64,000 nucleotides of DNA, taken from Candidatus Bipolaricaulota bacterium. GTDB lineage: Bacteria; Patescibacteriota; Patescibacteriia; UBA11705; DATKZF01. The first letter of the stretch is position 1; each line of letters opens with the position of its first letter. The stretch lies in the NCBI GenBank assembly GCA_035528115.1, contig DATKZF010000001.1:28508-92507 (forward strand), read 5' to 3'. A program made the position numbers and the translations under genes. Positions 2,979-39,759 of this stretch are shown in pieces. Under the pieces are notes generated by a model that did no database searches, was not told the DNA's origin, and worked only from the letters and a program-made list of their open reading frames with translations.

Positions 2979-3911
2979 ATGAATTTCGTCGATCAAATTT
3001 ATAAAAAAATAGTCAATATTGAAATTCAGGGCGCGACGAGTGTCTGCGAGGCCGTGCTTTTGGCGCTGAAAAAAGAGTCGGCTGACAAAAAAATGAAAAC
3101 TTCCGCCGATTTGATAAGAAGTTTGCATCGGGTCGGCCATTATTTGAGCCGCGCCAGAGCGACCGAACCAATGGCCGAAAACGCGGTCAGGTTTGTCGAG
3201 CATCATTTGAGGCAAAATAGGGAAATGGAATTGAAAGAATTGAGAGTTTTAATAAAGCGCGGCATTGACGGATTTTTGTTTCGCTTGGCGACCAATAAAA
3301 AAAATATTCGCGATGTCGGCGAGCGGTTGATTGAAGACGAAGACAATGTCTTCACCCATTGCCATTCGTCAACGGTGATCGATGTTTTGGCCGAGGCGAA
3401 AAAGAACAAGAAGAAAATTCATGTTTTCAATACGGAAACCAGGCCTCTTTTTCAAGGCAGAATCACCTCAAAGGAATTGATTAAGAAAAAAATTGAAAAC
3501 ACGCAGGTCGTTGATTCGGCCGGACCGTTTTTCGTCAGTCAATACACAAAAGATTATGACATGGATGTTTTGTTGCTGGGTTGCGATGCTATTTCCCAAA
3601 GCGGTGACGCCGTGAATAAGATCGGTTCGCTCGGCTTGGCTTTGGCGGCCAAAGAAGCTGATATTCCCGTTTACATCGCCACGCAATCTTTAAAATTGGA
3701 TCTTGACGCCAAATATTTGAAAAATTTGGAAATTGAAAAGCGTCCAAGCAAGGAGATTTGGCCCGGCGCGCCGGAAGGCGTTGAAATAATCAATTACGCT
3801 TTTGATATTATTCCGGCCAAATACATTACCGGTTTCATTACCGAACTCGGCGTCCTAAAGCCGAAGCGTTTGGCCAAAAGCGTCAAAGCGGCTTACCCGT
3901 TTTTAATATGA
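2979..3911 (+). CDS. e2b2: Ribose-1,5-bisphosphate isomerase (eIF-2B alpha/beta/delta-like)
   Basis: eIF-2B-like family features; sits in an operon with form III RuBisCO and AMP phosphorylase, as in archaeal and CPR AMP salvage. Confidence 0.65.
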   Translation: MNFVDQIYKKIVNIEIQGATSVCEAVLLALKKESADKKMKTSADLIRSLHRVGHYLSRARATEPMAENAVRFVEHHLRQNREMELKELRVLIKRGIDGFLFRLATNKKNIRDVGERLIEDEDNVFTHCHSSTVIDVLAEAKKNKKKIHVFNTETRPLFQGRITSKELIKKKIENTQVVDSAGPFFVSQYTKDYDMDVLLLGCDAISQSGDAVNKIGSLGLALAAKEADIPVYIATQSLKLDLDAKYLKNLEIEKRPSKEIWPGAPEGVEIINYAFDIIPAKYITGFITELGVLKPKRLAKSVKAAYPFLI

Positions 3912-4354
3912 TTAAGTTGATCATTTGGGATTTGCTTGGCGTGCTCTATGAAAACGGGGAAGTCAATCCGTTTGCTCGGGCAATCTTAGCTGAATTTGAA
4001 AAAAAGAGTATTGAAAACGTTTGCGTCAGCAATCTTTCACCGGACACGGTTCATCGACTCGCTGAGCAATTAAATATCAAACATGTTATAATATGCCAAG
4101 AAGAAGGTTTTTCTAAGAAAGAAACGCCGGTTTACGAAAAGGTCTTGTCCGATTTTAAAGTAAAAGCAAATGAGGTTTTATTTATTGACGATAATGAGAG
4201 CAATTTGGCGGCCGCGCGAAAAATAGGTATAAAAACGGCCGTTTTTAGAGGAAAAAAGGGCAATGCGGATTTTGCGATTGATGATTTGGTAGATGTTTGG
4301 GGGATACTTGCACATATCATGGATCATGCCTGCCCGCCGACCTGTCCGCCGTAG
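3908..4354 (+). CDS. HAD-superfamily phosphatase (short); candidate nucleotidase or phosphoglycolate phosphatase
   Basis: DxD-type motif I (IIWDLLGVL) and motif IV (FIDDNESN); start overlaps e2b2 stop by 4 nt. Confidence 0.55.
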   Translation: MIKLIIWDLLGVLYENGEVNPFARAILAEFEKKSIENVCVSNLSPDTVHRLAEQLNIKHVIICQEEGFSKKETPVYEKVLSDFKVKANEVLFIDDNESNLAAARKIGIKTAVFRGKKGNADFAIDDLVDVWGILAHIMDHACPPTCPP

Positions 4355-4400
4355 CTTCACCGGAGGCGGAAGCTTAAGAGCGAAGGCGGGGATCACGTAT

Positions 4401-4573
4401 CATGGAGCATTGTTACGAATTAAAATCATCGAGTAGGCCGATTAATACATTTTACGAATTACATTCACTTATAGCTTTATGCCTAAGCATCTTGTAATAC
4501 GTAACAAATTACCTAAAAGCTAAATAGAATCTTGTAATTCGTAACAATGAAACAATGGAGCAATGGAGCAATC
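4401..4573. repeat. MITE-like repeat, family 1 copy B (~170 bp), ending CAATGGAGCAATGGAGCAATC, ~60 nt upstream of the rbcL start
   Basis: Near-identical to copy D (42169-42390); contains the TTGTAATTCGTAACAA core in both orientations. Confidence 0.7.
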
Positions 4574-4635
4574 TTCGCCTTGTAATCCCGGTTTCCGGTT
4601 TCAAATTACCCATTATCGATTACTAACCATAAAAT

Positions 4636-5901
4636 ATGTCCTCAATAAAATTCGTTGAAATCGGCTACAAACCAAAGGTTGAAAAGGAGCTGATCGCTAC
4701 TTTTTACATGGAGCCGCATAAAGTTAAATTTCACGAAGCGGCGGACGCCGTGGCCGGCGAAAGCTCAATCGGGTCTTGGACGGAGCTGAAAACCTTGAGT
4801 CCGAAAACCGCAGTTCGTCTGAAGGCGCGGGTGTTTTATATCAACGAGAAAAAAAAGATCATCAAAATAGCTTATCCCATGGATTTGTTCGAGAAAGGCA
4901 GTATCCCGCAGTTGCTTTCAAGTCTGGGCGGTAACATTTTCGGCATGAAAGCCGTGAAAAATTTGCGTTGGCAAGATATTGAATTTCCAAAAAAATACAT
5001 TGATTCTTTCATGGGACCGGCTTTCGGAATTGAAGGAATCAGAAAAATTTTAAAAGTGAAAAACAGAGTTCTTTTGGGCAGTATCATCAAGCCGAAAGTG
5101 GGTTTGTCCGCCTTGGCGCAAGCCAAATTATCCGCGGTCGTCTGGCTCAACGGCATTGACTTGATCAAAGACGATGAGAATTTGACGGACATGGCTTTCA
5201 ATCGATTCGAAGATCGAGTGAAAAAAGTTTTTGAATGGAAGCGCAAAGTGGAAAAGGAAACCAAACAAGAAAAACTTTACGCCTGCAATATTACGGCCAC
5301 GCCTGATGAAATGCTCAGACGCGCCAAGTTGGTTAAAAAATACGGAGGCAGGTGCGTAATGATCGATTTGGTCTCGGTCGGTTTGGACAATGTCCAGTAT
5401 TTGCGAAAACAAAAATTAGGTTTGATAATTCACGGCCATCGAGCCGGTCACGCCATGTTCACTCGGTACAAAAAGCACGGCATGAGCATGCTTGTTTTGG
5501 CCAAGTTGTCCAGATTGGCCGGCATTGATCAATTGCACACGGGCACGGTTGTCGGTAAAATGGAAGGCAATGAAGAAGAGGTCATGACAGTCAATAATTT
5601 GCTTAAAGAAGATTGGGCCGCGTATAATGTCGTCAGAGAAGATTGGAGCAATATTAAGCCGGTGATGCCGATAGCGTCGGGCGGCTTGCATCCCGGGTTA
5701 TTGCCGAAATTGATTGAGATATTGGGGCAGGATTTGATTGTTAATTTCGGCGCGGGCATTCACGGACATCCTGACGGCTCGGCTGCCGGCGCCAGAGCCT
5801 GCTATCAAGCGGCCGAAGCGATCAGTAAAGGCATTGATTTGAAAAAATACGCTGAGGATCATGTTGAATTGGCCAGAGCGTTGGAGTATTGGAAATCCTG
5901 A
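4636..5901 (+). CDS. rbcL: Ribulose-1,5-bisphosphate carboxylase large subunit, form II/III (AMP-salvage type)
   Basis: KPKVGLS, GIDLIKDDE and GGLHPG motifs; 421 aa; no small subunit; typical form III N-terminus. Confidence 0.85.
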   Translation: MSSIKFVEIGYKPKVEKELIATFYMEPHKVKFHEAADAVAGESSIGSWTELKTLSPKTAVRLKARVFYINEKKKIIKIAYPMDLFEKGSIPQLLSSLGGNIFGMKAVKNLRWQDIEFPKKYIDSFMGPAFGIEGIRKILKVKNRVLLGSIIKPKVGLSALAQAKLSAVVWLNGIDLIKDDENLTDMAFNRFEDRVKKVFEWKRKVEKETKQEKLYACNITATPDEMLRRAKLVKKYGGRCVMIDLVSVGLDNVQYLRKQKLGLIIHGHRAGHAMFTRYKKHGMSMLVLAKLSRLAGIDQLHTGTVVGKMEGNEEEVMTVNNLLKEDWAAYNVVREDWSNIKPVMPIASGGLHPGLLPKLIEILGQDLIVNFGAGIHGHPDGSAAGARACYQAAEAISKGIDLKKYAEDHVELARALEYWKS

Positions 5902-5902
5902 C

Positions 5903-6110
5903 GGATGTTACGAATTACAAGATTCACTTTGGCTTACAAACGGTTGTTACGAATTACAAGATTCTAAGGCATATTTTCTAGCTATAGATGAATGTAATTC
6001 GTAACAAATAACCTAAAAGCTAAACAGAATATTGTAATTCGTAACAGATAACCTGAAAGCTAAATAGAAGATTGTAATTCGTAACATAAACGTATTCGTA
6101 ATAAACGATT
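5903..6110. repeat. Nested or tandem cluster of family 1 MITE-like repeats (at least two units) between rbcL and the AMP phosphorylase gene
   Basis: Repeated TGTTACGAATTACAAGATTC and ATGTAATTCGTAACAAATAACCTNAAAGCTAAANAGAANATTGTAATTCGTAACA units. Confidence 0.7.
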
Positions 6111-6223
6111 AACCAAAGACCAAGGCTAGCTTATTAGCCGTAATGATTTGTAACGTATTCGTAACAAATATAACGCCAAGGCTAGCTAATTTAGAAGCAA
6201 TTATTTGTAACATGTAACGTATG
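6110..6223 (+). promoter_or_regulatory. Tandem family 2 leader element (two CCAAGGCTAGC...ATTTGTAAC units) running into the AMP phosphorylase ATG
   Basis: Same two-unit architecture found directly upstream of the VIT-family gene at 49191-49274. Confidence 0.5.
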
Positions 6224-7723
6224 GCTTTTTACCTAAAATGCAAAAAACTAGATTTCTCCACGGGCGACAAGCAAATCGTGGTGATCAATGATGAAGAAGC
6301 TGAAAGCTACGGCATTTATCCGGGAGATCGCTTGCTTTTGCAATGGAGCAAAAATAAAAAAGCGGCGGTGATCGCGGATACCACGGCCTCCAAAGTCAGG
6401 CCCGGCGAAATCGGTTTGTTTTCGGAAGTTTGGCGCAAATCCAATGTTGAATCGGGAGATATAGTGGAAGTGAATATCATGTCCAGACCTTTGTCCATTG
6501 AAACGATCAGAAAAAAGCTTTTGGGAAAACCCGTTACGTATGAAGAAATTTACGCGGTAATTAAGGATATTGTGGACGGCACGCTGGGTACCGTAGAGAC
6601 CACCTATTACGCGGCTTCAAGTTTCGTCAAAGACTATTCGATAGACGAACTTTATTATGTGGCCAAGGCCATGGCCGAAACGGGCGAGCAAATGGAATTG
6701 AAAGAGCGGATGGTGGACAAACATTCGGTCGGCGGTTTGGCCGGCAACAGAGTGACCCCTCTGGTCGTGTCCATTGTGGCTTCCTTGGGTTTGTATATTC
6801 CCAAAACGTCTTCTCGGGCGATCACGTCTCCGGCCGGCACGGCCGACACCATGGAAGTGATTTGTCCCGTTTCTTTTTCAATGGCGGAAATAAAAAAAAT
6901 AGTCAAAAAAACTCACGGCTGTTTTGTTTGGGGCGGCGGTCTTAATCTCGCGCCCGCCGATGATAAAATCATTAAAGTCTCCAGGCCGCTGGCGTTTGAG
7001 CCTTACGATAAAATGATTGTCAGCATTTTAGCCAAAAAGGTGGCCATGGGAGTTGATGATTTGGTTTTGGATATTCCGGTCGGTCCTTCGACCAAAGTGC
7101 CGGACATGGTTAAAGCCAACATGATTGAAAAAAAATTCATGGCCCTAGGCAAACGATTCGGCATGAAAATCAAAGCGGTGAAAACCAAAGCTTTGGAGCC
7201 GGTGGGCGACGGTATCGGGCCGGCCCTGGAAGCGCGCGATATTTTCCGCGTTTTGCAAAGGCATAAATTTCGACCGCTTGATTTGGAGAAAAAAGCCATT
7301 TTATTAGCGGGCGAGTTGCTCGAGCTCAATGGTTTCGCGAAAAAAGGCCATGGCAAAGCCATGGCCATGCAACAGCTTAAATCAAGCGCGGCCTGGGAGA
7401 AAATGAATGAAATCGTGGTGGCGCAAGGAGGCAAAGCCAACCAGCATTCCGAGGATTTCACTTCCGGAGCCAAGCGATATGAAATTCACGCGAAAAAGTC
7501 CGGCAAAGTGACGGCCATTGACAATAAAGCGATCAATGAAATTTGCATGAATTTGGGCGCTCCGAGCGACAAATTGGCCGGACTGCACCTCCATGTTCAT
7601 TATGGCGCCAAGGTTAAAAAAGGCGATAAATTGTTCACCGTTTACGGCTCATCGGATGACAGGCTGAAATTGGGCGTTTTGGCCAGCCGGGAGGTGGAAA
7701 TTTTCAAGATAAGCAAGAAATAA
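6221..7723 (+). CDS. deoA: AMP phosphorylase (thymidine phosphorylase family with archaeal-type N-terminal extension)
   Basis: 500 aa; pyrimidine-nucleoside phosphorylase fold plus the N-terminal extension typical of AMPpases; syntenic with rbcL and e2b2. Confidence 0.75.
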   Translation: MAFYLKCKKLDFSTGDKQIVVINDEEAESYGIYPGDRLLLQWSKNKKAAVIADTTASKVRPGEIGLFSEVWRKSNVESGDIVEVNIMSRPLSIETIRKKLLGKPVTYEEIYAVIKDIVDGTLGTVETTYYAASSFVKDYSIDELYYVAKAMAETGEQMELKERMVDKHSVGGLAGNRVTPLVVSIVASLGLYIPKTSSRAITSPAGTADTMEVICPVSFSMAEIKKIVKKTHGCFVWGGGLNLAPADDKIIKVSRPLAFEPYDKMIVSILAKKVAMGVDDLVLDIPVGPSTKVPDMVKANMIEKKFMALGKRFGMKIKAVKTKALEPVGDGIGPALEARDIFRVLQRHKFRPLDLEKKAILLAGELLELNGFAKKGHGKAMAMQQLKSSAAWEKMNEIVVAQGGKANQHSEDFTSGAKRYEIHAKKSGKVTAIDNKAINEICMNLGAPSDKLAGLHLHVHYGAKVKKGDKLFTVYGSSDDRLKLGVLASREVEIFKISKK

Positions 7724-7788: not shown

Positions 7789-8532
7789 ATGGAAAAAAAT
7801 AAATCGAATTTTTGGATGGGATTTTTCGTGGGCTTGGCTTGCGTCAGTTTATTGTGTTTTTTGGGCTTGTTGATTTTCGTCTTCAGTCAGGGTGAAAACG
7901 TTAATTTGGCGGAGAAGGTTCAAGCGCAAGACGAACAGGATGTTGTCAGCGACATTAATCCGGTCGAGCAATATGCCGCGATTCCTCCATTGACGGCCGA
8001 TGACTATGTCAAAGGCGATCCGAACGCCAAAGTCGTTTTAATCGAATATTCGGATTTTGAATGTCCTTATTGTTTAATGCATTCGCAAACCATGGAACAA
8101 ATTGAAGATTTTTACGGCAATCAAATTGCCATCTCGTTCAGAAATTTTCCGCTGTCGTTTCATCCCGAGGCTCAAAAAGCGGCTGAAGCGGCTGAATGCG
8201 CGGGAGTTCAAGGCAAGTTTTGGGAAATGCATGACAAGCTTTTTGACATGAATGAGGCCGGAACACTTGGTTTGGATAATTTCAAGGCCGCGGCCAAAGA
8301 GTTGGGTTTGAACACGACAAAATTCAATCAATGCTTGGATGGCGGCGAAATGGCGGCCAGGATCGCAGAGCAGGCTTCCTTGGCGCAACAAGCCGGAGTA
8401 TCCGGCACGCCGGCGACTTTCGTGAACGGAGATTTGGTCAGCGGAGCCAGGCCGTTAGAGGATTTTACGGATCAAGATGGAAATTTGGCGCCGGGATTTC
8501 AAACTATTATCGAAACTTATTTGGGTGAATAA
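7789..8532 (+). CDS. DsbA-like thiol:disulfide oxidoreductase (thioredoxin fold, CPYC active site) with N-terminal membrane anchor
   Basis: FECPYC motif; N-terminal TM helix. Confidence 0.7.
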   Translation: MEKNKSNFWMGFFVGLACVSLLCFLGLLIFVFSQGENVNLAEKVQAQDEQDVVSDINPVEQYAAIPPLTADDYVKGDPNAKVVLIEYSDFECPYCLMHSQTMEQIEDFYGNQIAISFRNFPLSFHPEAQKAAEAAECAGVQGKFWEMHDKLFDMNEAGTLGLDNFKAAAKELGLNTTKFNQCLDGGEMAARIAEQASLAQQAGVSGTPATFVNGDLVSGARPLEDFTDQDGNLAPGFQTIIETYLGE

Positions 8533-16871: not shown

Positions 16872-17819
16872 ATGAAACATTTAATCTCACTCAAAGAAAA
16901 TTCGAAAGAAGACATTTTGAAAATGATCGATCTGGCTCAAAAACTGAAACAAAAAAAGAACAACGGCGAATTGACGCGCTATCTGGAAGACAAGACTTTG
17001 ATCATGCTTTTTCAGAAAACTTCCACCCGCACCCGTTTGTCCTTTGAATCTGCCATGACCGAGCTGGGCGGTCACGCGATTTTTCTTGACTCGCGCACCA
17101 CGCAGTTTTCTTTGTGCGATTTTCGAGATGAGATTCAGGCGGTGATGCGATTTGGCGCGACCTTGATGTTTCGCGCGCAAAAGGCGGCTGACGTTATGAC
17201 CGCGGCTTCTTTCAATAAAATTCCGGTCATTGACGCTTGCAGCGAGAAATATCATCCGGCTCAGGCGATCACTGACATGCTCACGATGATTGAAAAGAGC
17301 GGGGGACTTGAAAACATAAAAAAAGTGGTTTGGCTGGGAGTTGAAAATAACGTCATGAATACTTTGATGCTGGTTTGCGTGAAATTAGGCGTCAAATTCA
17401 CCATTATAGCGCCGGAAGCTGATATTGACAGCGTTGATGAGGAGTTAAAGCGCCAAGCCGCGGAAACGAGCCTGGTCGAGCGGACGCTGGATTTGGCCGA
17501 GGGGTTAAAAGACGCGGATTTTGTCCACACCGACACTTGGATGAATATGGAGTTTTTTGACAACGGCCAAGTCAAACCGCAAATGCAAGCGGAATATGAA
17601 AGAAGAAAAGCCACGTTTTCTCCTTATCAAATCAACGCCGATTTAATAAATAAATACTGTCCTCAAGCCAAAATAATGCACTGCATGCCTTGCCACATCG
17701 GTTATGAAATTTCTCGCGACGCCATGGATCATCCAAACAGCGTTGTCTTTGATCAAGCGGAAAATAGGCTTCACGCTCAAAAAGGCATTTTAATGTGGCT
17801 TTTGGACAGGGAAGTTTAA
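16872..17819 (+). CDS. argF: Ornithine carbamoyltransferase-family enzyme (divergent substrate-binding motif)
   Basis: STRTR carbamoyl-phosphate motif; HCMPC (HCLP-like) motif; 315 aa; TDTWMNME replaces the canonical DxxxSMG. Confidence 0.6.
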   Translation: MKHLISLKENSKEDILKMIDLAQKLKQKKNNGELTRYLEDKTLIMLFQKTSTRTRLSFESAMTELGGHAIFLDSRTTQFSLCDFRDEIQAVMRFGATLMFRAQKAADVMTAASFNKIPVIDACSEKYHPAQAITDMLTMIEKSGGLENIKKVVWLGVENNVMNTLMLVCVKLGVKFTIIAPEADIDSVDEELKRQAAETSLVERTLDLAEGLKDADFVHTDTWMNMEFFDNGQVKPQMQAEYERRKATFSPYQINADLINKYCPQAKIMHCMPCHIGYEISRDAMDHPNSVVFDQAENRLHAQKGILMWLLDREV

Positions 17820-26016: not shown

Positions 26017-26577
26017 TTATTTCTTCTTTTTGGTTGTTTTCTTTTCTTTGATCTTAACCGGTTTTTTAGCTTTCTCTTTTTTAACAACTTCTTTCTTTTC
26101 AACAGCCTTTTCTTTTTTGACAACCTTTTTGTTTTTGCAAGGAGTCGCAACAGCCGCCGGCTTTATCGCTTTTAGAATCTCGTCGAGTTTGGCATTTATT
26201 GTCTCAAGTTGCTTTTGAGTCTGGTCGCCGCCGCCGTCGCTTTTTTTGCCTTTACTGAAACAATCGCTGCAATAAACCGCTTTTTCTCCGGTGGGCTTAA
26301 AGGGCACTTCGCAGACTTTATTGCAAGTGGCGCAAACAGCCTTGTGCATTTGTTTATCGCGCGATTTGAATCCTTTTTGATCACCGGGTTCTCTGCCGCT
26401 GAAGCAGTCGGAACAAAAAATCGGCTTGCCTCCCATCGGTTTAAACGGCACTTCGCAATTTTTGCCGCATTCGCTGCAAATTGCTCTGTGCATTCCCTGA
26501 CGCGAAGAATCCCGCCCCCCAAAGTCTTTTCTGTCTCTCTTGCGATCAAATCTACTATTTTGTTGATAATTTCCCAT
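26017..26577 (-). CDS. Tandem zinc-ribbon protein (2x CxxC-x17-CxxC with VPFKPxGxKPxxCSDCF) with Lys-rich histone-H1-like tail; likely nucleic-acid binding
   Basis: Two repeats CSECGKNCEVPFKPMGGKPIFCSDCF and CATCNKVCEVPFKPTGEKAVYCSDCF; KKEK-rich C-terminus. Confidence 0.5.
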   Translation of the reverse strand: MGNYQQNSRFDRKRDRKDFGGRDSSRQGMHRAICSECGKNCEVPFKPMGGKPIFCSDCFSGREPGDQKGFKSRDKQMHKAVCATCNKVCEVPFKPTGEKAVYCSDCFSKGKKSDGGGDQTQKQLETINAKLDEILKAIKPAAVATPCKNKKVVKKEKAVEKKEVVKKEKAKKPVKIKEKKTTKKKK

Positions 26578-33780: not shown

Positions 33781-33810
33781 AAAAAGCCCCTTTGTTCGGG
33801 GCGTTTTTTA
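33781..33810. terminator. Bidirectional intrinsic terminator (AAAAAGCCCCTTTGTTCGGGGCGTTTTTT)
   Basis: Read directly. Confidence 0.6.
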
Positions 33811-33815
33811 TAAGA

Positions 33816-33980
33816 TTAAAATCTATTCGTTTTTCTTTGTTGGTGACAATCTTTGCAGAAAATAGGTCTGTCGCCATCCGGTTTAAACGGCAATTCCGTG
33901 ATTTCTTTACCGCAGCCGGAACAAGTCCAGTTGCCTTGAACCATCGGTCTTTGGGCGCCGAAATTTTGTCGGTCTTCCAT
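33816..33980 (-). CDS. Small zinc-ribbon protein (54 aa): CSGCGKEITELPFKPDGDRPIFCKDC; paralogue of the repeats in 26017..26577; not in the ORF track
   Basis: Hand translation of the minus strand: MEDRQNFGAQRPMVQGNWTCSGCGKEITELPFKPDGDRPIFCKDCHQQRKTNRF*; CxxC-x18-CxxC spacing. Confidence 0.55.
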   Translation of the reverse strand: MEDRQNFGAQRPMVQGNWTCSGCGKEITELPFKPDGDRPIFCKDCHQQRKTNRF

Positions 33981-34157
33981 GTGATTTGTTGTTTTGAAAC
34001 TTTACGATTTAATCGCTCTTATGAAGGCTAATAAAATTGTAAGTTTTAACAAAACTTTTAATTATTATGAGGCCATTTTATCATGTTTTTAATAATTTGT
34101 CAATATGCGCCTTGATTTTGGGTGTTTTATTTCTAAAATGTTTGTCATAATAAAGAC

Positions 34158-35408
34158 ATGACTGAAATATTATCAAAATGCAAAATTAAAGAATTTGACC
34201 TGCTTTTAGCTGAAAAAAAGAACGTTTTGGCTCTCGGACCCGAATCGGCGGGTAATTTCTCCGTTTATATCAACGGAAAAGTTTATTATTGCTCAGATTT
34301 TGGCGATTTATTGGAGGAAGAGCGTTTTGATGTCTATAAAAAGGCTTTATTTGAGCTTATTGATAGAAATAACCTGATTCCCGATATTATTCGCGTTGAC
34401 CTTCATCCGGCCTATAAAACCTCAAAATTGGGCGAAGAATTGGCTCTTAAATTCAACTGCCGCCTGGAAAGAGTCCAGCACCATATAGCGCACGTTTATT
34501 CGGCTGTATTTGATCAATTTGCGGGCTACGAATCTACCAAAGATTTACCAATCCTGCGAAAACAAGGAGAATACGAATCTACGAATACTTTACGAATACG
34601 ACGAAAGCATGGAGATATGACTCTACCGACAAAATTTTTAGGCATAGCCTGCGACGGCACCGGCCTTGGGTTGGACGGCAAAATATGGGGAGGAGAAGTA
34701 TTTCAATATCAAATATCAAATATTAAAAATAAACTAACGCGAATCGGGCATCTTGAAAACCAGTTGCTGTGCGGAGGCGACGCGGCCATTAAAGAGCCGG
34801 CTCGAATGCTACTTTCCATACTTTTAAATATAAAAAAGCCGGCTGAGGTTTGGCCGATTTTTAGCGCATTTTACACCGAACAACAATTTGATACATTGGT
34901 AAAAATGCGTGAACAAAAATTTAATTCACTGGAGACTTCAAGCGCGGGTAGGGTGCTGGACGCGGTTTCGGTTTTGCTCGGATTTTGCGGCAATGAGAGA
35001 AAATACAAGCATGAGCCCATTGACTTGCTGGAGAAAAATTCAACGCAGCCTTTTGAGCTGGAGCCTGTGATAACTGAAGAACAAAGAAACAAAGAAACCG
35101 AGGAACAATGGAGCAATGGAGCAATGAAGCAATATGTCCTTAACACCTCTTATTTATTTGAATGGTTGCTTGAGAATTTAGATAAAGATAAGGGCAGACT
35201 GGCGGCGACAGTTCAAAAATATATTATCGAAGGCTTGATTGAGATAGCCAAAAGAACTGATCCGAATTTGCCGATTTATTTTAGCGGTGGAATGGCCAAT
35301 AATCGAATTATGAGTCAAATTGCCATGAATAATGGCTTAATCATGGCTGAAAACATCGATCGGGGAGACAATGCCTTGAGTTTGGGGCAGTTGACTTTAT
35401 TTTTGTAA
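34158..35408 (+). CDS. hypF: HypF-like carbamoyltransferase, Kae1/TsaD-like domain only (no acylphosphatase, Zn-finger or YrdC domains)
   Basis: QHHIAHV His motif, GIACDGTGLGLDGKIWGGE, C-terminal FSGGMANNRIM; in-frame insertion of the MITE terminal motif at 35103-35135. Confidence 0.6.
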   Translation: MTEILSKCKIKEFDLLLAEKKNVLALGPESAGNFSVYINGKVYYCSDFGDLLEEERFDVYKKALFELIDRNNLIPDIIRVDLHPAYKTSKLGEELALKFNCRLERVQHHIAHVYSAVFDQFAGYESTKDLPILRKQGEYESTNTLRIRRKHGDMTLPTKFLGIACDGTGLGLDGKIWGGEVFQYQISNIKNKLTRIGHLENQLLCGGDAAIKEPARMLLSILLNIKKPAEVWPIFSAFYTEQQFDTLVKMREQKFNSLETSSAGRVLDAVSVLLGFCGNERKYKHEPIDLLEKNSTQPFELEPVITEEQRNKETEEQWSNGAMKQYVLNTSYLFEWLLENLDKDKGRLAATVQKYIIEGLIEIAKRTDPNLPIYFSGGMANNRIMSQIAMNNGLIMAENIDRGDNALSLGQLTLFL

Positions 35409-35444
35409 AATTATAATATTCGCTTTCAACAAAGGAGGGCGATC

Positions 35445-35681
35445 ATGAAGTTTCTGGCGGCATTGCTGGCCATGCTCACCATATATTCCGGATGGCAGGC
35501 GACCAAAAACATCATATTTCTTTTCGGCGCGGTCAAGGACCGTGAAAGGTATGAAGAACTTCGAAGTACTGTCCATGGTCCGTTCGCATTGGTGGAGTCC
35601 TACGTCATTTTGCCAGTCAGCGTTTGTCTGATATTTTTCTTTATGACGCTTTTGGCGGCGGGAATCGCTCTGGAAACATAG
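35445..35681 (+). CDS. Small membrane protein (hypothetical)
   Basis: AAAGGAGGG Shine-Dalgarno-like site; two TM helices. Confidence 0.4.
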   Translation: MKFLAALLAMLTIYSGWQATKNIIFLFGAVKDRERYEELRSTVHGPFALVESYVILPVSVCLIFFFMTLLAAGIALET

Positions 35682-35901
35682 CCCGTTCGGATCATTTCGC
35701 GCGGGTTTTAAATTTGACAGATATTGGTAAATTAATTAAGTTTAAATACGACGGGTGACGCGCGTAAAGTTCAAGAGTTTGGACCCGACGTCACCTGAAT
35801 TAGCATCACCTGATGCCACCGACGTGCCGCGCGTCACCCGTCATCTTCTCTTGCTCCTCCCCACGTGGCGGAGCATTCTTTTTTAAAGAAAAAATCAAGG
35901 A

Positions 35902-35930
35902 TTGACTTAATTATGCAAAATTGCTTAAAT
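35902..35930 (+). promoter_or_regulatory. Putative promoter TTGACT-N17-TTAAAT for ORF 35966, followed by AGAGGAGGA Shine-Dalgarno-like site
   Basis: Read directly. Confidence 0.35.
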
Positions 35931-35965
35931 ATTATATTAACGGGTGAAAACAGAGGAGGACGGTC

Positions 35966-36223
35966 ATGACCTTGAATGAGGTTTATCTTAAATACCAGGT
36001 GGAAAAAGAAATTAGGGAATTCGCTGATTGTTCGCGAGCCTGGCTGCGCAAGGTTGGCTTGGCCATCAAAAGAGTGGTCGCGGCAATCATGAAGGAACGT
36101 CGCATCAGTTTTGAGGAAGTAAAGCGGCTACCAGGCAATACGATTCTGGGGCCAATCTCCGAAGCGGCGGCCAACGAGTTCTTCGCCTTGCTGGCCACGG
36201 GTAGCGAGTGGCGGAACAAATGA
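35966..36223 (+). CDS. Hypothetical protein (85 aa)
   Basis: Strong Shine-Dalgarno-like site plus downstream terminator. Confidence 0.45.
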   Translation: MTLNEVYLKYQVEKEIREFADCSRAWLRKVGLAIKRVVAAIMKERRISFEEVKRLPGNTILGPISEAAANEFFALLATGSEWRNK

Positions 36224-36226
36224 TTC

Positions 36227-36258
36227 AACCCGCGGATGAACGTATCTTGCGGGTTTTT
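36227..36258. terminator. Bidirectional intrinsic terminator (ACCCGC...GCGGGT + TTTTT)
   Basis: Read directly. Confidence 0.6.
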
Positions 36259-36261
36259 AAA

Positions 36262-37122
36262 TTAGTGATTAATAACTTTTCGCATTAATTCATTTACGAA
36301 CTGAAAATTACCATCGCCGGTCAAAACAACGTCAAAATTTTCGTCAAACGCTTTTTTCATCGCCGTGTTTTCAATATTAAGAAAACCCAAAGAAATCATG
36401 TTTTTATAATAAAATCCTTTGACCATGCCCGGATCTCCGAGAGAGTCCCCGAGCAAAATGACATTGGGACGGTTTTTAATCTTTTCAAAAACCGACGGAA
36501 TTTCTTTCAAGACCGTTTCGTCTTTATTTAAACTGTGAATGATCGGCTCGAGCGGACGCAAGGCTTTGCCGTTTTGATCCCACTCGAATTTATTGGTCAC
36601 CTAATAAATATTCGGGAAATTCAATTTATTTTTTTCGAAGAATATGGGAATGGCGTCTCCGCAGCCGCTGGCGGACATTATAATCAAAGGAATGTTTTTT
36701 TCATTGAGCAGAGTCAGAAATTCCATCGCGCCGTCTCGAAACTTCAAATGTCCGTTGGCCACGATATCCGCCAAATCGTTTTTTGACAGTCCGGATTCAA
36801 TCAGCAGACGGTCGTGTTTGTCCCACCATTGCCGCATTGCCGTTTTCTTTTCGTTGATTGAAATACTTAGATCAAGTTCAATCGGATGATAATGATCGAA
36901 CAGTGCGTGAGCTTTGGCCGCGTAATCTTCGGTCAGATGTTTGCCGTCGCGCAGCATTGAAATAATGGAAGGAGTTTTGACCCCGTCAATTGTGCCATAA
37001 GTCAGGGTGCCGTCGAAGTCCGATAAAAAGTGTAATCCATTCGCGCCATCCATTTGAATGGATTTTTTTAATTGTTCGAATTTTGTGGGATTTTGAATGG
37101 ATATTTGCATAAAATTTAACAA
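36262..37122 (-). pseudogene. UMPH-1/NT5C3-like pyrimidine 5'-nucleotidase (HAD) interrupted by a single in-frame TAG at 36601-36603
   Basis: ORFs 36601..37122 (motif I FLSDFDGTLT) and 36262..36600 (motif IV VILLGDSLGD) are contiguous in one frame, separated only by the TAG; together ~286 aa with one HAD domain. Confidence 0.6.
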
Positions 37123-38084
37123 ATCCTCGGAATCAATTTTCCTCTCGGCTCTTCGATTTGTCTTTCCGATCCAAGTTTTGTTTTCAAAAAAACGCCTTCG
37201 CCTTCAAAGCATTTGCCAATAATTTTGGCCTCGGGATTGAATTCTTGGAGCTTTTTTAATGCTTCATCAGTGTTTTGAGGACTGACCGCGGCGATAAAGC
37301 GGCCTTCGGAGGGCAATGTAAAAAGCTCAATGCCTAAAAGTTCGGTCAAGGCAAAAACTTCTTTTTTATAAGGCAATTTGTCTTCATCCAAAACAATTTT
37401 TATTTTTGATTTGGCCGCGATTTCATTCATGTTGGCGGCCACGCCGCCGCGAGTCGGATCTTTGGCCGCGTTTAGAAGATGCCCGACCGCCTGAAACTCG
37501 GCCAAGAGCGGCCGGCAGTCGCTTATTAAATCGGTTTGATAGTCAAAGCGATAGGCGAGAAGCGTCAGTCCATGTTCGCCCAAATCTCCGGAAGTTATGA
37601 TGTTATCGCCGGCTTTGGCTCCGCCATTGTCAATCACTCTTTCAACCAAGCCCACGCCGGCCGTGGTTATTTCAATTTTATCGATTTTGCCTTTTTCCAT
37701 CACTTTGGTGTCACCGGTGACAATGGGAATATTCGTTAACTTTGAAATTTTATCAATCGATTCGGCGATTTTGAATAAGTCTTTTTTAGAAAAACCTTCT
37801 TCAAGCACAATGCTCAGCGATAATCCCAGCGGTTTGGCGCCCATCACCGCCAAGTCGTTTATCGTGCCGCAAGCGGCGATTTTGCCAATGTCGCCGCCCG
37901 GAAAAAATATCGGATCCACAATGAAAGCGTCAGTGGTGAAAACCAGCTTTTTGTCTCCCAAATCGAAAATCGCCGCGTCATCTTCGGTGTTGGTCCAGTT
38001 TGTTTTCAGATTAATGATTTTCCTGAGCTCGCGGATAAGTTCATTGTTTTTGAATCCGCCGCCGCCGTGGTCAAGGTCAATCAT
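37116..38084 (-). CDS. hypE: Hydrogenase maturation protein HypE (PurM superfamily), C-terminal PRIC motif
   Basis: TTDAFIVDPIFFPGGDIGKIAACGTINDLAVMGAKP and terminal ...GKLIPRIC. Confidence 0.8.
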   Translation of the reverse strand: MIDLDHGGGGFKNNELIRELRKIINLKTNWTNTEDDAAIFDLGDKKLVFTTDAFIVDPIFFPGGDIGKIAACGTINDLAVMGAKPLGLSLSIVLEEGFSKKDLFKIAESIDKISKLTNIPIVTGDTKVMEKGKIDKIEITTAGVGLVERVIDNGGAKAGDNIITSGDLGEHGLTLLAYRFDYQTDLISDCRPLLAEFQAVGHLLNAAKDPTRGGVAANMNEIAAKSKIKIVLDEDKLPYKKEVFALTELLGIELFTLPSEGRFIAAVSPQNTDEALKKLQEFNPEAKIIGKCFEGEGVFLKTKLGSERQIEEPRGKLIPRIC

Positions 38085-38093
38085 ATTAATAAT

Positions 38094-38141
38094 TTCTACC
38101 CCACTTTAGTGGGTGAATACAAAGGCCCACTAAAGTGGGGT
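38094..38141. other. Perfect 18-bp stem-loop (CTACCCCACTTTAGTGGG...CCCACTAAAGTGGGGTAG) at the hypD/hypE junction
   Basis: Read directly; overlaps the last hypD codons and the intergenic gap. Confidence 0.5.
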
Positions 38142-39170
38142 AGAATTTTTATATTTATATTCAATTTGGCAAGATCCCTCAACCGACACCATACAAGCCC
38201 CTTGCGGGTTTTCCGGTGTGCAAATTTTAGCGAAAAGGGGACAGTCAGCCGGTTTGGCCAGACCTTGCAGTATTTTACCACAAATGCAGGCGCTTGGCCT
38301 ATATTCGGTGTTTTTTCTTATATTTTCAATTAAATCGTGATGAATAAACTCGGTATCCTGATTTTGAAATTCCTTTCTAATTTTTAAGCCTGAATTTGGT
38401 ATGTTTCCGAGGCCGCGCCAGCGCGCATCTGAAATTTCAAAGACTTCATTGATTAATTTTCGCGCTTCAATATTGCCTTCGGGTCGTACGACGCGCGTAT
38501 ATTCGTTCTTGAGTTCATTTTTTCCGCTGACAATCATTTCAAGCAACCACTGAATCGAAAGCAAGACGTCTTCGGGTTCAAATCCTGAAATCACTTGCGG
38601 CACATTAAATTGCTTAAAAGGCTCCTCTCCGATAATGGCCGCAACATGGCCCGGATCAAGGAATCCGTCGATTTGAATATTAGGGCTTGAAAGTAAAGCG
38701 GCCATGGCCGGCGGGAACAGTTTGTGAGCTGAATATACCTTTAAACCTTGCTTGATCGCCCAGGCTGACATGGGTGTGGTGGTCTCAAATCCTATGCCAA
38801 AAAACGCCAAATCATTTATTTGTTCAGCGAGTTTTACAGCGTCGAGAGTGGAGTAAACCACTTCGATTTTTTTGCCTTGTTGCCTTAATTTTTCAAGGCT
38901 TGAATTTGTCCCGGGCAAGGATAGAGCGTCGCCGTAAACGGCGATGGGCACATCGTTTTCCGCCAGGCCGATGACAACATCAATGTCAGTCTGATCGGTG
39001 ACGCAGATCGGACAGCCGGGCCCGGAAATAAGCTCAACGTTTGGCGGAAGCAAACTTTTCAAACCGTACTTGGCCACGGTTTGCGAATGCGTGCCGCAGA
39101 GTTCCATCAGTGTGACCGGGCGGTTGATTTGAGAAGCGAGTGTGTTAATTTTATTGATGATTTTTTGCAT
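38130..39170 (-). CDS. hypD: Hydrogenase maturation protein HypD
   Basis: GPGCPICV motif, CGxH-type N-terminal region, C-terminal Cys cluster; 346 aa. Confidence 0.8.
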   Translation of the reverse strand: MQKIINKINTLASQINRPVTLMELCGTHSQTVAKYGLKSLLPPNVELISGPGCPICVTDQTDIDVVIGLAENDVPIAVYGDALSLPGTNSSLEKLRQQGKKIEVVYSTLDAVKLAEQINDLAFFGIGFETTTPMSAWAIKQGLKVYSAHKLFPPAMAALLSSPNIQIDGFLDPGHVAAIIGEEPFKQFNVPQVISGFEPEDVLLSIQWLLEMIVSGKNELKNEYTRVVRPEGNIEARKLINEVFEISDARWRGLGNIPNSGLKIRKEFQNQDTEFIHHDLIENIRKNTEYRPSACICGKILQGLAKPADCPLFAKICTPENPQGACMVSVEGSCQIEYKYKNSTPL

Positions 39171-39283
39171 GAATGTTATTTAATCGCGAATCTATTGAAT
39201 TTTTTATAGTAAATGTTATAATAAATAAAACTTACTGCAGGCGCTGTGTCAATACATGGAGTTATTGTATTATAAGGGGGATA

Positions 39284-39517
39284 ATGATGGCTGGGTATGG
39301 GTTTAGGCCTGGTGTGGCTGGAAGTGGTGGGTCGCCGATAGACTGGGAAGAGAGGGCGAGACAGAGGAAGATGTCACAGGCCGGCCACATCATAGTTAAG
39401 GCCGTCTTTGCCAGAGGAGGCACTGATGAGGATTGGATGAGAATTTTCCATGACCGAGGCCTGGTAGATCGCCTGGCAGAAATGATCATTCAAAAGCCCG
39501 AGCCCACCTCCAAGTAG
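39284..39517 (+). CDS. Hypothetical small protein (~77 aa) in a GC-rich patch between hypD and hypC
   Basis: AAGGGGGA Shine-Dalgarno-like site before ATGATGG; local GC ~55%. Confidence 0.3.
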   Translation: MMAGYGFRPGVAGSGGSPIDWEERARQRKMSQAGHIIVKAVFARGGTDEDWMRIFHDRGLVDRLAEMIIQKPEPTSK

Positions 39518-39552
39518 GGGCAGCATATCTTGACTCTTGAAGTTCCCGCGCG

Positions 39553-39759
39553 TCATTCGCGCCGGAGCTTTTTAATTTCATCAGCTTCGTTTTTATCAAC
39601 AATTTCAATGGCAAACCCCGCGTGCACAATCACAAAATCTCCCGGATTTGGTGTTATCAGGCTTATATTAACTCTTTTTTTCAGGCCGTTAAAATCAACC
39701 AGCGCGGTTTGGCTTGTTTTATCCATTGATTCAATTTTTCCGGGAATGGCTAAGCACAT
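39553..39759 (-). CDS. hypC: Hydrogenase maturation protein HypC (HupF/HypC family)
   Basis: N-terminal MCLAIP; 68 aa. Confidence 0.8.
   Translation of the reverse strand: MCLAIPGKIESMDKTSQTALVDFNGLKKRVNISLITPNPGDFVIVHAGFAIEIVDKNEADEIKKLRRE

Follow-up and report, generated by a model that had tools for sequence, protein, structure and literature searches.

Canonical HypF, one of the maturation proteins of [NiFe]-hydrogenases, unites several activities in one chain: its acylphosphatase domain hydrolyzes carbamoyl phosphate, its YrdC-like domain forms carbamoyl-AMP, and the carbamoyl-AMP tunnels to the Kae1-like domain, which carbamoylates HypE's C-terminal cysteine (PMC6022934, PMC12134894). 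A HypF that consists of the Kae1-like domain alone is already known as a concept from HypF1 of Cupriavidus necator, for which "only one of three domains" and a likely need for carbamoyl adenylate have been described (PMC9100943). Here we analyze a protein of that kind, a HypF of 416 aa encoded close to hypC, hypD, and hypE in a stretch of 64,000 nucleotides of contig DATKZF010000001.1 (hereafter the window), which comes from an uncultivated, ultrasmall bacterium of the candidate phyla radiation (CPR)/Patescibacteria type. We conclude that this locus is probably what a Parcubacteria-type CPR bacterium normally has for assembling the Fe(CN)2CO cofactor, namely, HypC/HypD, HypE, and a lineage-specific, Kae1-only ("short") HypF.

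Related domains are found in two other systems. In the synthesis of the tRNA modification N6-threonylcarbamoyladenosine (t6A), a YrdC-family enzyme (TsaC/Sua5) makes threonylcarbamoyl-AMP and a separate Kae1-family enzyme (TsaD/Kae1/Qri7) uses it, a two-protein arrangement that serves as our working analogy for supplying a Kae1-only HypF. The TobZ/NodU/CmcH O-carbamoyltransferases share the carbamoyl-adenylate chemistry and both domain types with HypF (PMC6022934); they keep the two domains in one chain, in reversed order, and have no linkage to hyp genes.

Group-3b [NiFe]-hydrogenases have already been reported from Moranbacteria and Berkelbacteria, in a paper that is silent on maturation and regards those CPR bacteria that have group-3b/3d hydrogenases as likely to be obligate fermenters (PMC10811913). 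Our literature search found no paper on HypF in CPR bacteria and nothing directly relevant on hyp genes without hydrogenases, and the words "truncated," "Kae1," and "YrdC" are all absent from a 2025 review of [NiFe]-cofactor biosynthesis (PMC12134894). The large family of short HypFs in CPR bacteria that we describe below thus seems not to be treated in the literature that we searched.

Results

The short hypF gene (34158..35408, plus strand) encodes the S-carbamoyltransferase domain of HypF only, with PF17788 at residues 19 to 118 and PF22521 at residues 162 to 411; these HypF-specific Pfam models match with E values of 9e-43 and 4e-18. The motifs H108-x3-H112, D166-G-T-G-x-G, and G403-D404-x5-G-Q are present. 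On the HypF model TIGR00143 the protein covers profile positions 490 to 738 of 741, it aligns to residues 398 to 757 of the 772-aa HypF of Thermococcus kodakarensis (PDB sequence alignment), and its residue 24 corresponds to residues 398 to 425 in an alignment with five full-length HypFs, whose residue ~375 to 400 is the equivalent of its start. The window protein therefore shares with canonical HypF (Escherichia coli; T. kodakarensis, 4G9I; Caldanaerobacter subterraneus, 3VTH/3VTI; TIGR00143) the Kae1-like fold, the HxxxH, DGTG, and GDxxxxxGQ motifs, and a PRIC-ended HypE, but lacks ~400 N-terminal residues that comprise the acylphosphatase, the two zinc fingers, and the YrdC-like domain, and thus two of the three HypF active sites and the internal tunnel.

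Model searches of the protein agreed with the alignments. No acylphosphatase domain was matched by Pfam or NCBIfam, no zf-HYPF zinc finger by Pfam or by a hidden Markov model (HMM) that we derived from the acylphosphatase, zinc-finger, and YrdC region of five full-length HypFs, and no YrdC-like domain by Pfam, NCBIfam, or this N-terminal HMM. Without acylphosphatase and YrdC domains, short HypF cannot itself perform those canonical HypF steps. An earlier interpretation of the window from its letters and open reading frames (ORFs), which we call the sequence-only reading, had taken the 416-aa protein for the C-terminal Kae1-like domain alone, with the acylphosphatase, zinc fingers, and YrdC-like domain missing. 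Both claims are borne out by the domain mapping and alignments, and the first also by structure prediction.

With the family alignment as input, AlphaFold2 gave a confident model, with a predicted local distance difference test (pLDDT) value of 87.9 and a predicted TM-score of 0.87. In a Foldseek search of the PDB with this model, the nine best matches were all HypF structures (E values from 6e-26, for 3VTI, to 2e-22), with TM-scores of 0.71 to 0.76 of the query and 0.41 to 0.51 of the target. TsaD/Kae1/Qri7 structures followed at E values of ~1e-7 and TM-scores of 0.37 to 0.48, and no TobZ/NodU/CmcH structure was among the 50 Foldseek matches listed. These results bear on the idea that the protein is another carbamoyltransferase of the Kae1/TsaD or TobZ/NodU type that merely resembles HypF, as might be thought from its failure at the equivalog cutoff of TIGR00143 (201.8 versus 466.1 bits) and from its NCBI annotation as a "hypothetical protein." Against such an identity, which we consider extremely improbable, stand the strong HypF-specific Pfam matches, a score of only 19.2 bits on the TsaD model TIGR00329 (cutoff, 207.8), Foldseek E values of ~1e-25 for HypF structures versus ~1e-7 for TsaD/Kae1/Qri7, and the genomic neighborhood: HypE lies next to short HypF in 71 of 82 sequences and HypD in 58 (the 82 being 80 sampled loci, the window, and its duplicate, L001). 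By score and by fold, short HypF is not a TsaD, and the acceptors of the two enzymes differ, being a protein cysteine for HypF and A37 of tRNA for TsaD.

Across 30 diverse short HypFs, 56 residues are invariant, and all of them are kept in the window protein. They include H108, H109, H112, D166-G-T-G, and D404, which we take to be the metal and nucleotide site of HypF structures. Between the HxxxH and DGTG motifs, the window gene carries an in-frame tandem repeat (34527..34637, plus strand; Tandem Repeats Finder, 45-bp unit, 2.5 copies, 73% matches). It encodes an insertion of ~35 residues, YESTKDLPILRKQG / YESTNTLRIRRKHG, at about residues 119 to 153, which has no counterpart in C. necator HypF1 (a gap in the BLASTP alignment) and is predicted to be disordered (pLDDT below 50 for residues 126 to 153).

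The truncation of short HypF is real and not an artifact. Upstream, an A+T-rich intergenic region of 177 bp (33981..34157) separates it from a divergent gene for a 54-aa protein and contains back-to-back sigma-70-like sites, which are consensus matches only: one at 34103->34075 on the minus strand, for the 54-aa gene (11/12 matches), and one at 34112-34139 on the plus strand, for short hypF. As the upstream 177 bp are taken up by the divergent gene and promoter-like sites, there is no space for more HypF. The identical gene and neighborhood are present in an independent Logan assembly, SRR8554512. Among the 81 short HypFs in which the first Kae1 motif could be sought, 74 have it at a distance of 15 to 72 residues, in the typical case 17, from the first start codon possible, and none of these 74 has room for a further domain. 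A hidden N-terminal extension of hypF was accordingly rejected, given the 177-bp gap with its divergent gene and the maximum of 72 residues before the first Kae1 motif in these relatives. An alternative genetic code was likewise rejected as the cause of the truncation, and of the split nucleotidase gene described below: translation table 11 yields normal, dense coding in the window, and a single TAG is involved.

A search of 5.8 billion proteins returned 1,456 homologs of short HypF. The best 120 of these are all 357 to 444 aa long and contain PF17788 and PF22521 only, and those among them with source names are mostly labeled Patescibacteria. To examine gene neighborhoods, we sampled 80 loci of species representatives in GTDB (for the most part Moranbacteria and other Parcubacteria), clustered all ORFs, and annotated the conserved clusters; as many contigs are short, the resulting counts are lower bounds. 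Apart from HypE and HypD, short HypF is accompanied by HypC in 46 sequences and, in the 80 loci, by the NiFe small subunit (PF01058) in 51, the large subunit (PF00374) in 46, and HypA in 26. The usual gene order is HypA-large-small on the minus strand, short HypF on the plus strand, and HypE-HypD-HypC on the minus strand. All 46 large subunits have both Ni-Fe-binding motifs; the large and small subunits are closest to the alpha and delta subunits of sulfhydrogenase (group 3b), and some loci also encode beta and gamma subunits. Given HypA and [NiFe]-hydrogenase as neighbors, short HypF is the hydrogenase-linked HypF of these organisms. Judged from its sequences, the short HypF family is large and monophyletic and is the standard HypF of CPR bacteria of the Parcubacteria/Moranbacteria type. 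The description of the window genes as an "incomplete" maturation set therefore did not hold, since short HypF with HypC, HypD, and HypE is the normal complement of this group and stands beside HypA and hydrogenase in relatives.

The three partner genes of the window lie on the minus strand. HypC (39553..39759), the Fe(CN)2CO chaperone, matches PF01455 (E value of 7.5e-24) and TIGR00074 (69.5 versus 48 bits), begins with MCLAIPGK, and keeps the essential Cys2. HypD (38130..39170), the [4Fe-4S] scaffold, scores 409.9 bits on TIGR00075 (cutoff, 192.8) and has the CGTH, GPGCPIC, and GFETT motifs and the C-terminal cysteine cluster. HypE (37116..38084), the carbamoyl dehydratase, scores 340.8 bits on TIGR02124 (cutoff, 251.6) and ends in PRIC, the cysteine of which is the carbamoyl acceptor; the same terminus occurs in 70 of 71 HypE homologs of related loci. 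All three proteins thus pass their curated cutoffs and carry their catalytic motifs (Cys2; CGxH, GPGCPxC, GFETT, and the Fe-S cysteines; PR[IV]C), in agreement with the view of the sequence-only reading that hypC, hypD, and hypE are intact and clustered. That reading had also seen neither a hydrogenase nor hypA or hypB within the 64 kb, and two scans concur. Pfam found no hydrogenase subunit, HypA, or HypB among ~60 ORFs of at least 107 aa, and HMMs derived from CPR proteins (large and small NiFe subunits, HypA, NuoE/F, HydA-like proteins, and 3b beta/gamma subunits) matched only HypC among all six-frame ORFs of at least 30 aa.

The closest relatives of the window are the loci L002, L003/L085, L087, and L088, whose short HypFs are 57 to 62% identical to that of the window. 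This subclade shares a synteny of short HypF (+), variable small cargo, HypE-HypD-HypC (-), a gene for a DUF4389-like protein (+), and the gene for the phosphoglycerate mutase iPGM (-). Five diverged genomes of the subclade have all four hyp genes in intact form and with no catalytic motif lost. Across the same genome pairs, HypE is 81 to 89% and HypD 71 to 79% identical, whereas the adjacent housekeeping iPGM is 68 to 72% identical. Selection on HypE and HypD thus does not fall short of that on a glycolytic enzyme, which speaks against relics.

The idea of relics deserves consideration nonetheless. In it, the subclade has lost its hydrogenase, and hypC, hypD, hypE, and a short hypF are decaying leftovers. 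It would explain why no remnant of a hydrogenase, of HypA, or of a diaphorase is left in the 64 kb of the window or within +-10 kb at L002, L003/L085, L087, and L088, and it would account for the invasion of the hyp cluster by cargo (23S-rRNA-intervening-sequence proteins, HicAB, and the split nucleotidase), and for the repeat insertion in the window hypF. It is hard to reconcile with four intact genes with all catalytic motifs in five diverged genomes, with the retention of the 56 invariant residues, and with HypE and HypD identities that exceed those of iPGM, and unlinked hydrogenase and hyp loci are known in other CPR lineages. We regard decay as improbable.

Those other lineages are represented by L094, L095, and L097, whose hydrogenase loci (in order, beta, gamma, HypC, delta, alpha, and HypA, with PGK, enolase, and iPGM next) have no hypD, hypE, or hypF within 10 kb. 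Evidently, it is common for structural and maturation genes to occupy different loci. L094 and L095 were rejected as hydrogenase loci of the window lineage itself, their iPGM being 39 to 50% identical, versus 68 to 72% inside the subclade. The client hydrogenase and hypA of the window genome probably lie at another locus, and the missing nearby hydrogenase and HypA are the sole respect in which the window looks "incomplete."

A further possibility is that the Hyp set of the subclade serves something other than a [NiFe]-hydrogenase, such as a protein that contains Fe-CN/CO or requires thiocyanate. Strong purifying selection in five genomes with neither a hydrogenase nor hypA (nickel insertion) nearby would suit this idea. 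However, the same family is directly linked to hydrogenase in 46 to 51 of 80 relatives, no candidate client is conserved beside the cluster (the neighbors being iPGM, the DUF4389-like protein, and variable cargo), and absence from +-10 to 30 kb says little in genomes of ~1 Mb. We therefore think a different client very improbable, and it is equally doubtful that the subclade, with its five or more genomes, lacks [NiFe]-hydrogenase altogether and uses its Hyp set to build an Fe-cyanide/carbonyl unit for, or deliver thiocyanate or cyanide to, a new client.

The sequence-only reading had further suggested that HypF is split, its missing parts being encoded by separate genes. We found no evidence of such parts. 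The N-terminal HMM gave no match at an E value of 1 or lower in six-frame ORFs of the window or of 86 CPR loci (1.2 Mb; +-10 kb of short HypF), so that neither the window nor the surroundings of short HypF in these loci contain an acylphosphatase, zinc-finger, or YrdC module. As a positive control, the same HMM detected an acylphosphatase/HypF pair of Sulfurovum that it had not seen, with E values of 2.7e-47 and 1.7e-93. This pair, on plasmid NZ_CP087125.1 of Sulfurovum mangrovi (L089:1303-3544), is annotated as a 141-aa acylphosphatase and an adjacent 595-aa HypF, the N-terminal domain having become separate through either a natural split or a frameshift.

The 54-aa protein (33816..33980, minus strand) had been proposed as a free-standing HypF zinc finger on account of its CxxC-x18-CxxC spacing. 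The spacing was confirmed in the ORF, but the protein belongs to another family, the zf_Tbcl_2/CxxC-x17-CxxC zinc ribbons (PF23477, E value of 1.6e-13; TIGR04272, 50.2 versus 36 bits). It has no zf-HYPF match at an E value of 0.01 or lower, and hhalign against genuine HypF fingers gave a probability of 8.4% over 5 columns. Its gene is equipped with a promoter-like site of its own and, at 33786-33802, with a bidirectional terminator, and it appears to be monocistronic. The protein is absent from ~75 of the 80 related loci, and within the subclade the distance of its gene from hypF drifts between 0.2 and 4 kb. Family membership, the hhalign result, and poor conservation led us to reject it as a HypF zinc-finger module.

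The OTC-family gene that had been drawn into the cyanide-ligand route is indeed present (16872..17819, plus strand; PF00185 and PF02729). It encodes an ordinary ornithine carbamoyltransferase-like enzyme that scores slightly below the cutoffs (TIGR00658, 276.7 versus 280.85 bits; NF001986, 285.9 versus 306) and lies 17 kb from the hyp genes, with neither arc nor hyp neighbors. We rejected it as a dedicated HypF partner, since it is unlinked to hyp genes; as predicted from its family, it is a possible source or sink of carbamoyl phosphate.

Discussion

Taken as an ordinary cofactor assembly set, the window genes would act as follows. An activated carbamoyl donor, most likely carbamoyl-AMP, would bind at the conserved metal/nucleotide site of short HypF, which would move the carbamoyl group onto HypE's C-terminal cysteine. 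HypE would dehydrate it to thiocyanate with ATP, HypCD would take the cyanide onto iron, and the completed unit would be inserted into a cytoplasmic [NiFe]-hydrogenase of the group-3b type. Since the acylphosphatase, zinc-finger, and YrdC domains are missing from short HypF and no such module is encoded nearby, we infer that carbamoyl-AMP is made in trans. By analogy with t6A synthesis and its diffusible intermediate, threonylcarbamoyl-AMP, the best candidate for the supplier may be the housekeeping YrdC-family t6A enzyme TsaC/Sua5. The notion of the sequence-only reading that carbamoyl-AMP comes from another protein is thus reasonable and has been proposed for HypF1 (PMC9100943); what did not survive is the choice of the split parts that were to provide it.

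Alternatively, short HypF might need no partner, with its Kae1-like (ASKHA-fold) domain carbamoylating HypE directly from carbamoyl phosphate, with or without ATP. This would be in line with the lack of an acylphosphatase, zinc-finger, or YrdC module or any other conserved partner gene near short HypF in the 86 loci and with the retained nucleotide and metal motifs, and Kae1-only forms that arose at least twice independently would be easier to understand if the domain works alone. On the other hand, the YrdC-like domain makes the adenylate that is tunneled to the Kae1-like site in both HypF and TobZ (PMC6022934, PMC12134894), and HypF1 of C. necator failed to function in anaerobic E. coli (PMC9100943). 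TsaD/Kae1 enzymes, too, depend on TsaC/Sua5. We therefore consider a self-sufficient short HypF possible but unlikely and prefer an ordinary Hyp set whose short HypF is supplied with carbamoyl-AMP.

Several observations weigh against this preferred interpretation. No YrdC/Sua5 Pfam domain was present among the scanned window ORFs, and a YrdC-family partner for short HypF was not found. Hydrogenase, hypA, and hypB genes are missing from the 30 kb on either side in the window and from the +-10 kb covered at five loci of the four other subclade genomes. A search with the large subunit of L019, the nearest relative, returned 7,660 matches, and none was attributable to the metagenome-assembled genome (MAG) of the window among the 120 matches listed. 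The short HypF of the window contains the 35-residue disordered repeat insertion close to its active-site motifs. Finally, the supply of carbamoyl-AMP in trans is a proposal even for C. necator HypF1, and that protein appeared inactive in anaerobic E. coli (PMC9100943).

HypF1 is nevertheless the closest described protein in architecture. It comprises 394 aa and is encoded on pHG1 of C. necator H16 (L082:10034-11218) within hypA1-B1-F1-C-D-E. Like the window protein, it consists of PF17788 and PF22521 only and is encoded with hypC, hypD, and hypE, and the domain starts at the same point, residue 18 of the window protein aligning with residue 10 of HypF1 (BLASTP, 28% identity, E value of 4e-28). 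Linkage to hydrogenase genes is shared between HypF1 and the CPR family in relatives of the window, whereas in the window no hydrogenase is adjacent. C. necator also has full-length HypF paralogs on the same plasmid, and it is an aerobe, whereas CPR bacteria that have group-3b/3d hydrogenases are described as likely to be obligate fermenters (PMC10811913). The two kinds of short HypF also differ in descent. The identity with HypF1 is only 27 to 28%, and in the tree comparison HypF1 is 26 to 27% identical to CPR proteins, versus 32 to 37% to canonical full-length HypFs. In a bootstrapped neighbor-joining tree of Kae1-like domains, the CPR short HypFs formed one clade in 200 of 200 replicates and HypF1 stood among canonical HypFs; with few taxa and a simple distance method, HypF1 joined the CPR clade in 34 of 200 replicates. 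The Kae1-only state has therefore arisen at least twice, a result that is only indicative, given the small sampling.

Three of the four HypF domains thus seem dispensable across a whole bacterial radiation, well beyond one proteobacterial paralog and as the outcome of at least two origins. This sharpens an old question, namely, where a Kae1-only HypF obtains its activated carbamoyl group. For HypF1, it has been suggested that carbamoyl-adenylate is available only aerobically (PMC9100943). Since CPR carriers of hydrogenase are likely fermenters, this is unlikely to be the whole story. Moreover, CPR genomes are tiny, which, together with a likely fermentative life, makes the list of possible carbamoyl-AMP suppliers short. 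A one-domain HypF that is lineage-wide, independently evolved, and probably anaerobic makes the puzzle of HypF1 more tractable. There is also a consequence for annotation: short HypFs fall below the NCBI cutoff and are labeled "hypothetical protein," so that hydrogenase maturation is undercalled in CPR bacteria and their sets look falsely "incomplete." Going by its gene content, the window locus is an ordinary, functional-looking member of this family whose hydrogenase is simply not nearby.

Additional Observations

The window is a typical piece of a CPR/Patescibacteria chromosome, with housekeeping genes and an archaeal-type nucleotide-salvage trio at 2979-7723 (plus strand). The trio, which is typical of CPR bacteria, consists of a ribose-1,5-bisphosphate-isomerase-like protein of the e2b2 family, a type III RuBisCO (TIGR03326, 518 bits versus a cutoff of 497), and an AMP-phosphorylase-like protein. 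The source MAG carries the NCBI label "Candidatus Bipolaricaulota bacterium" (locus tag VMX18_00310, protein P0001). As its gene content and all close relatives are Patescibacteria/CPR, this label is probably wrong.

Downstream of short hypF, the window contains a gene for a pyrimidine 5'-nucleotidase of the HAD-IE/UMPH-1 type (36262..37122, minus strand) that a single in-frame TAG at 36601-36603 divides into ORFs of 173 and 112 aa. There is a 7-nt overlap between its start and the hypE stop, and the independent assembly L001 has the split as well. The gene is probably nonfunctional as a pseudogene or else made in two pieces. It is variable cargo outside Hyp function, sister loci having other cargo at the same position. 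More generally, the gaps in the hyp cluster of the subclade (L002, L003/L085, L087, L088; 35445-37122 in the window) are a hot spot for variable small cargo, including proteins of 23S rRNA intervening sequences (PF05635), HicAB pairs, a PDDEXK nuclease, a methyltransferase, and the split nucleotidase, and the hyp genes themselves are intact.

Small zf_Tbcl_2 genes are rare, with 11 domains in the 1.2 Mb of CPR loci, and those that are small and encode a single domain are without exception located upstream of a short HypF. The subclade has them in divergent orientation, 0.2 to 4 kb away (33816-33980 on the minus strand of the window, L002 ~8341-8463, L003 ~6076-6198, L087 ~7217-7339, and L088 1875-2045). 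At L010:9694-9918 (+) and L071:307-546 (+), zinc ribbons with RGG-rich tails are encoded 125 to 171 bp upstream of short HypF on the same strand. This association, seen in two or three lineages, may be due to chance or may reflect a regulatory or RNA-binding neighbor. Elsewhere in the window (26017-26577, minus strand), a 186-aa protein with two zf_Tbcl_2 fingers, an arginine-rich N terminus, and a very lysine-rich C-terminal tail is likely to be nucleic acid binding.

Among the 46 CPR large subunits, 44 end at or very near the histidine of DPCxxCxxH, and 35 of them end in DPCISCAVH (cluster 5; e.g., L037:7311-8570 and L046:7374-8636). Such termini leave no C-terminal extension that an endopeptidase could cleave off, in keeping with the lack of a gene for a HycI-type protease in these CPR loci. 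In many Moranbacteria (L023, L025, L026, L031, L051, L054, L070, and L078), hypC is followed by a gene for a shortened protein like the [FeFe]-hydrogenases of group A6 (344 to 507 aa; NF040763, 309 bits, below the cutoff), then by NuoF- and NuoE-like genes and by the glycolytic genes for FBA and TIM, with GAPDH on the other flank.

A last observation concerns an 883-aa ORF at L095:4613-7264 (plus strand), within a group-3b operon of a CPR bacterium, which is an in-frame fusion of HypC, HydE, and HydG. All three modules pass their cutoffs (HypC TIGR00074, 51.7 versus 48 bits; HydE TIGR03956, 363 versus 255 bits; HydG TIGR03955, 633 versus 312 bits). The architecture is shared by 17 proteins (P0241-P0257) of 880 to 946 aa, down to 41% identity, from MAGs labeled CPR, Nitrospirae (Nitrospirota type), and Omnitrophota, and ~12 further proteins are two-module HypC-HydE-like fusions. 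Other triple fusions are encoded at L097:8191-10833, L096:10001-12766, L098:10001-12721, and L099:10001-12769. Cys2 of HypC and both radical-SAM CX3CX2C motifs are conserved, as is the HydG-type C-terminal CX2CX22C in 13 of the 17. In five of five contexts the fusion lies in or directly after a [NiFe]-hydrogenase cluster (group-3b or Mrp/Mbh type) with HypA and/or HycI, and there is no [FeFe]-hydrogenase, HydF, HypD, HypE, or HypF within +-10 kb. A literature search on HypC-HydE-HydG fusions found nothing. HydG makes CO and cyanide from tyrosine, and this chemistry, together with the fusion to HypC, suggests that some [NiFe]-hydrogenases may receive the CO/CN ligands of their Fe(CN)2CO unit by a tyrosine-dependent, radical-SAM route.

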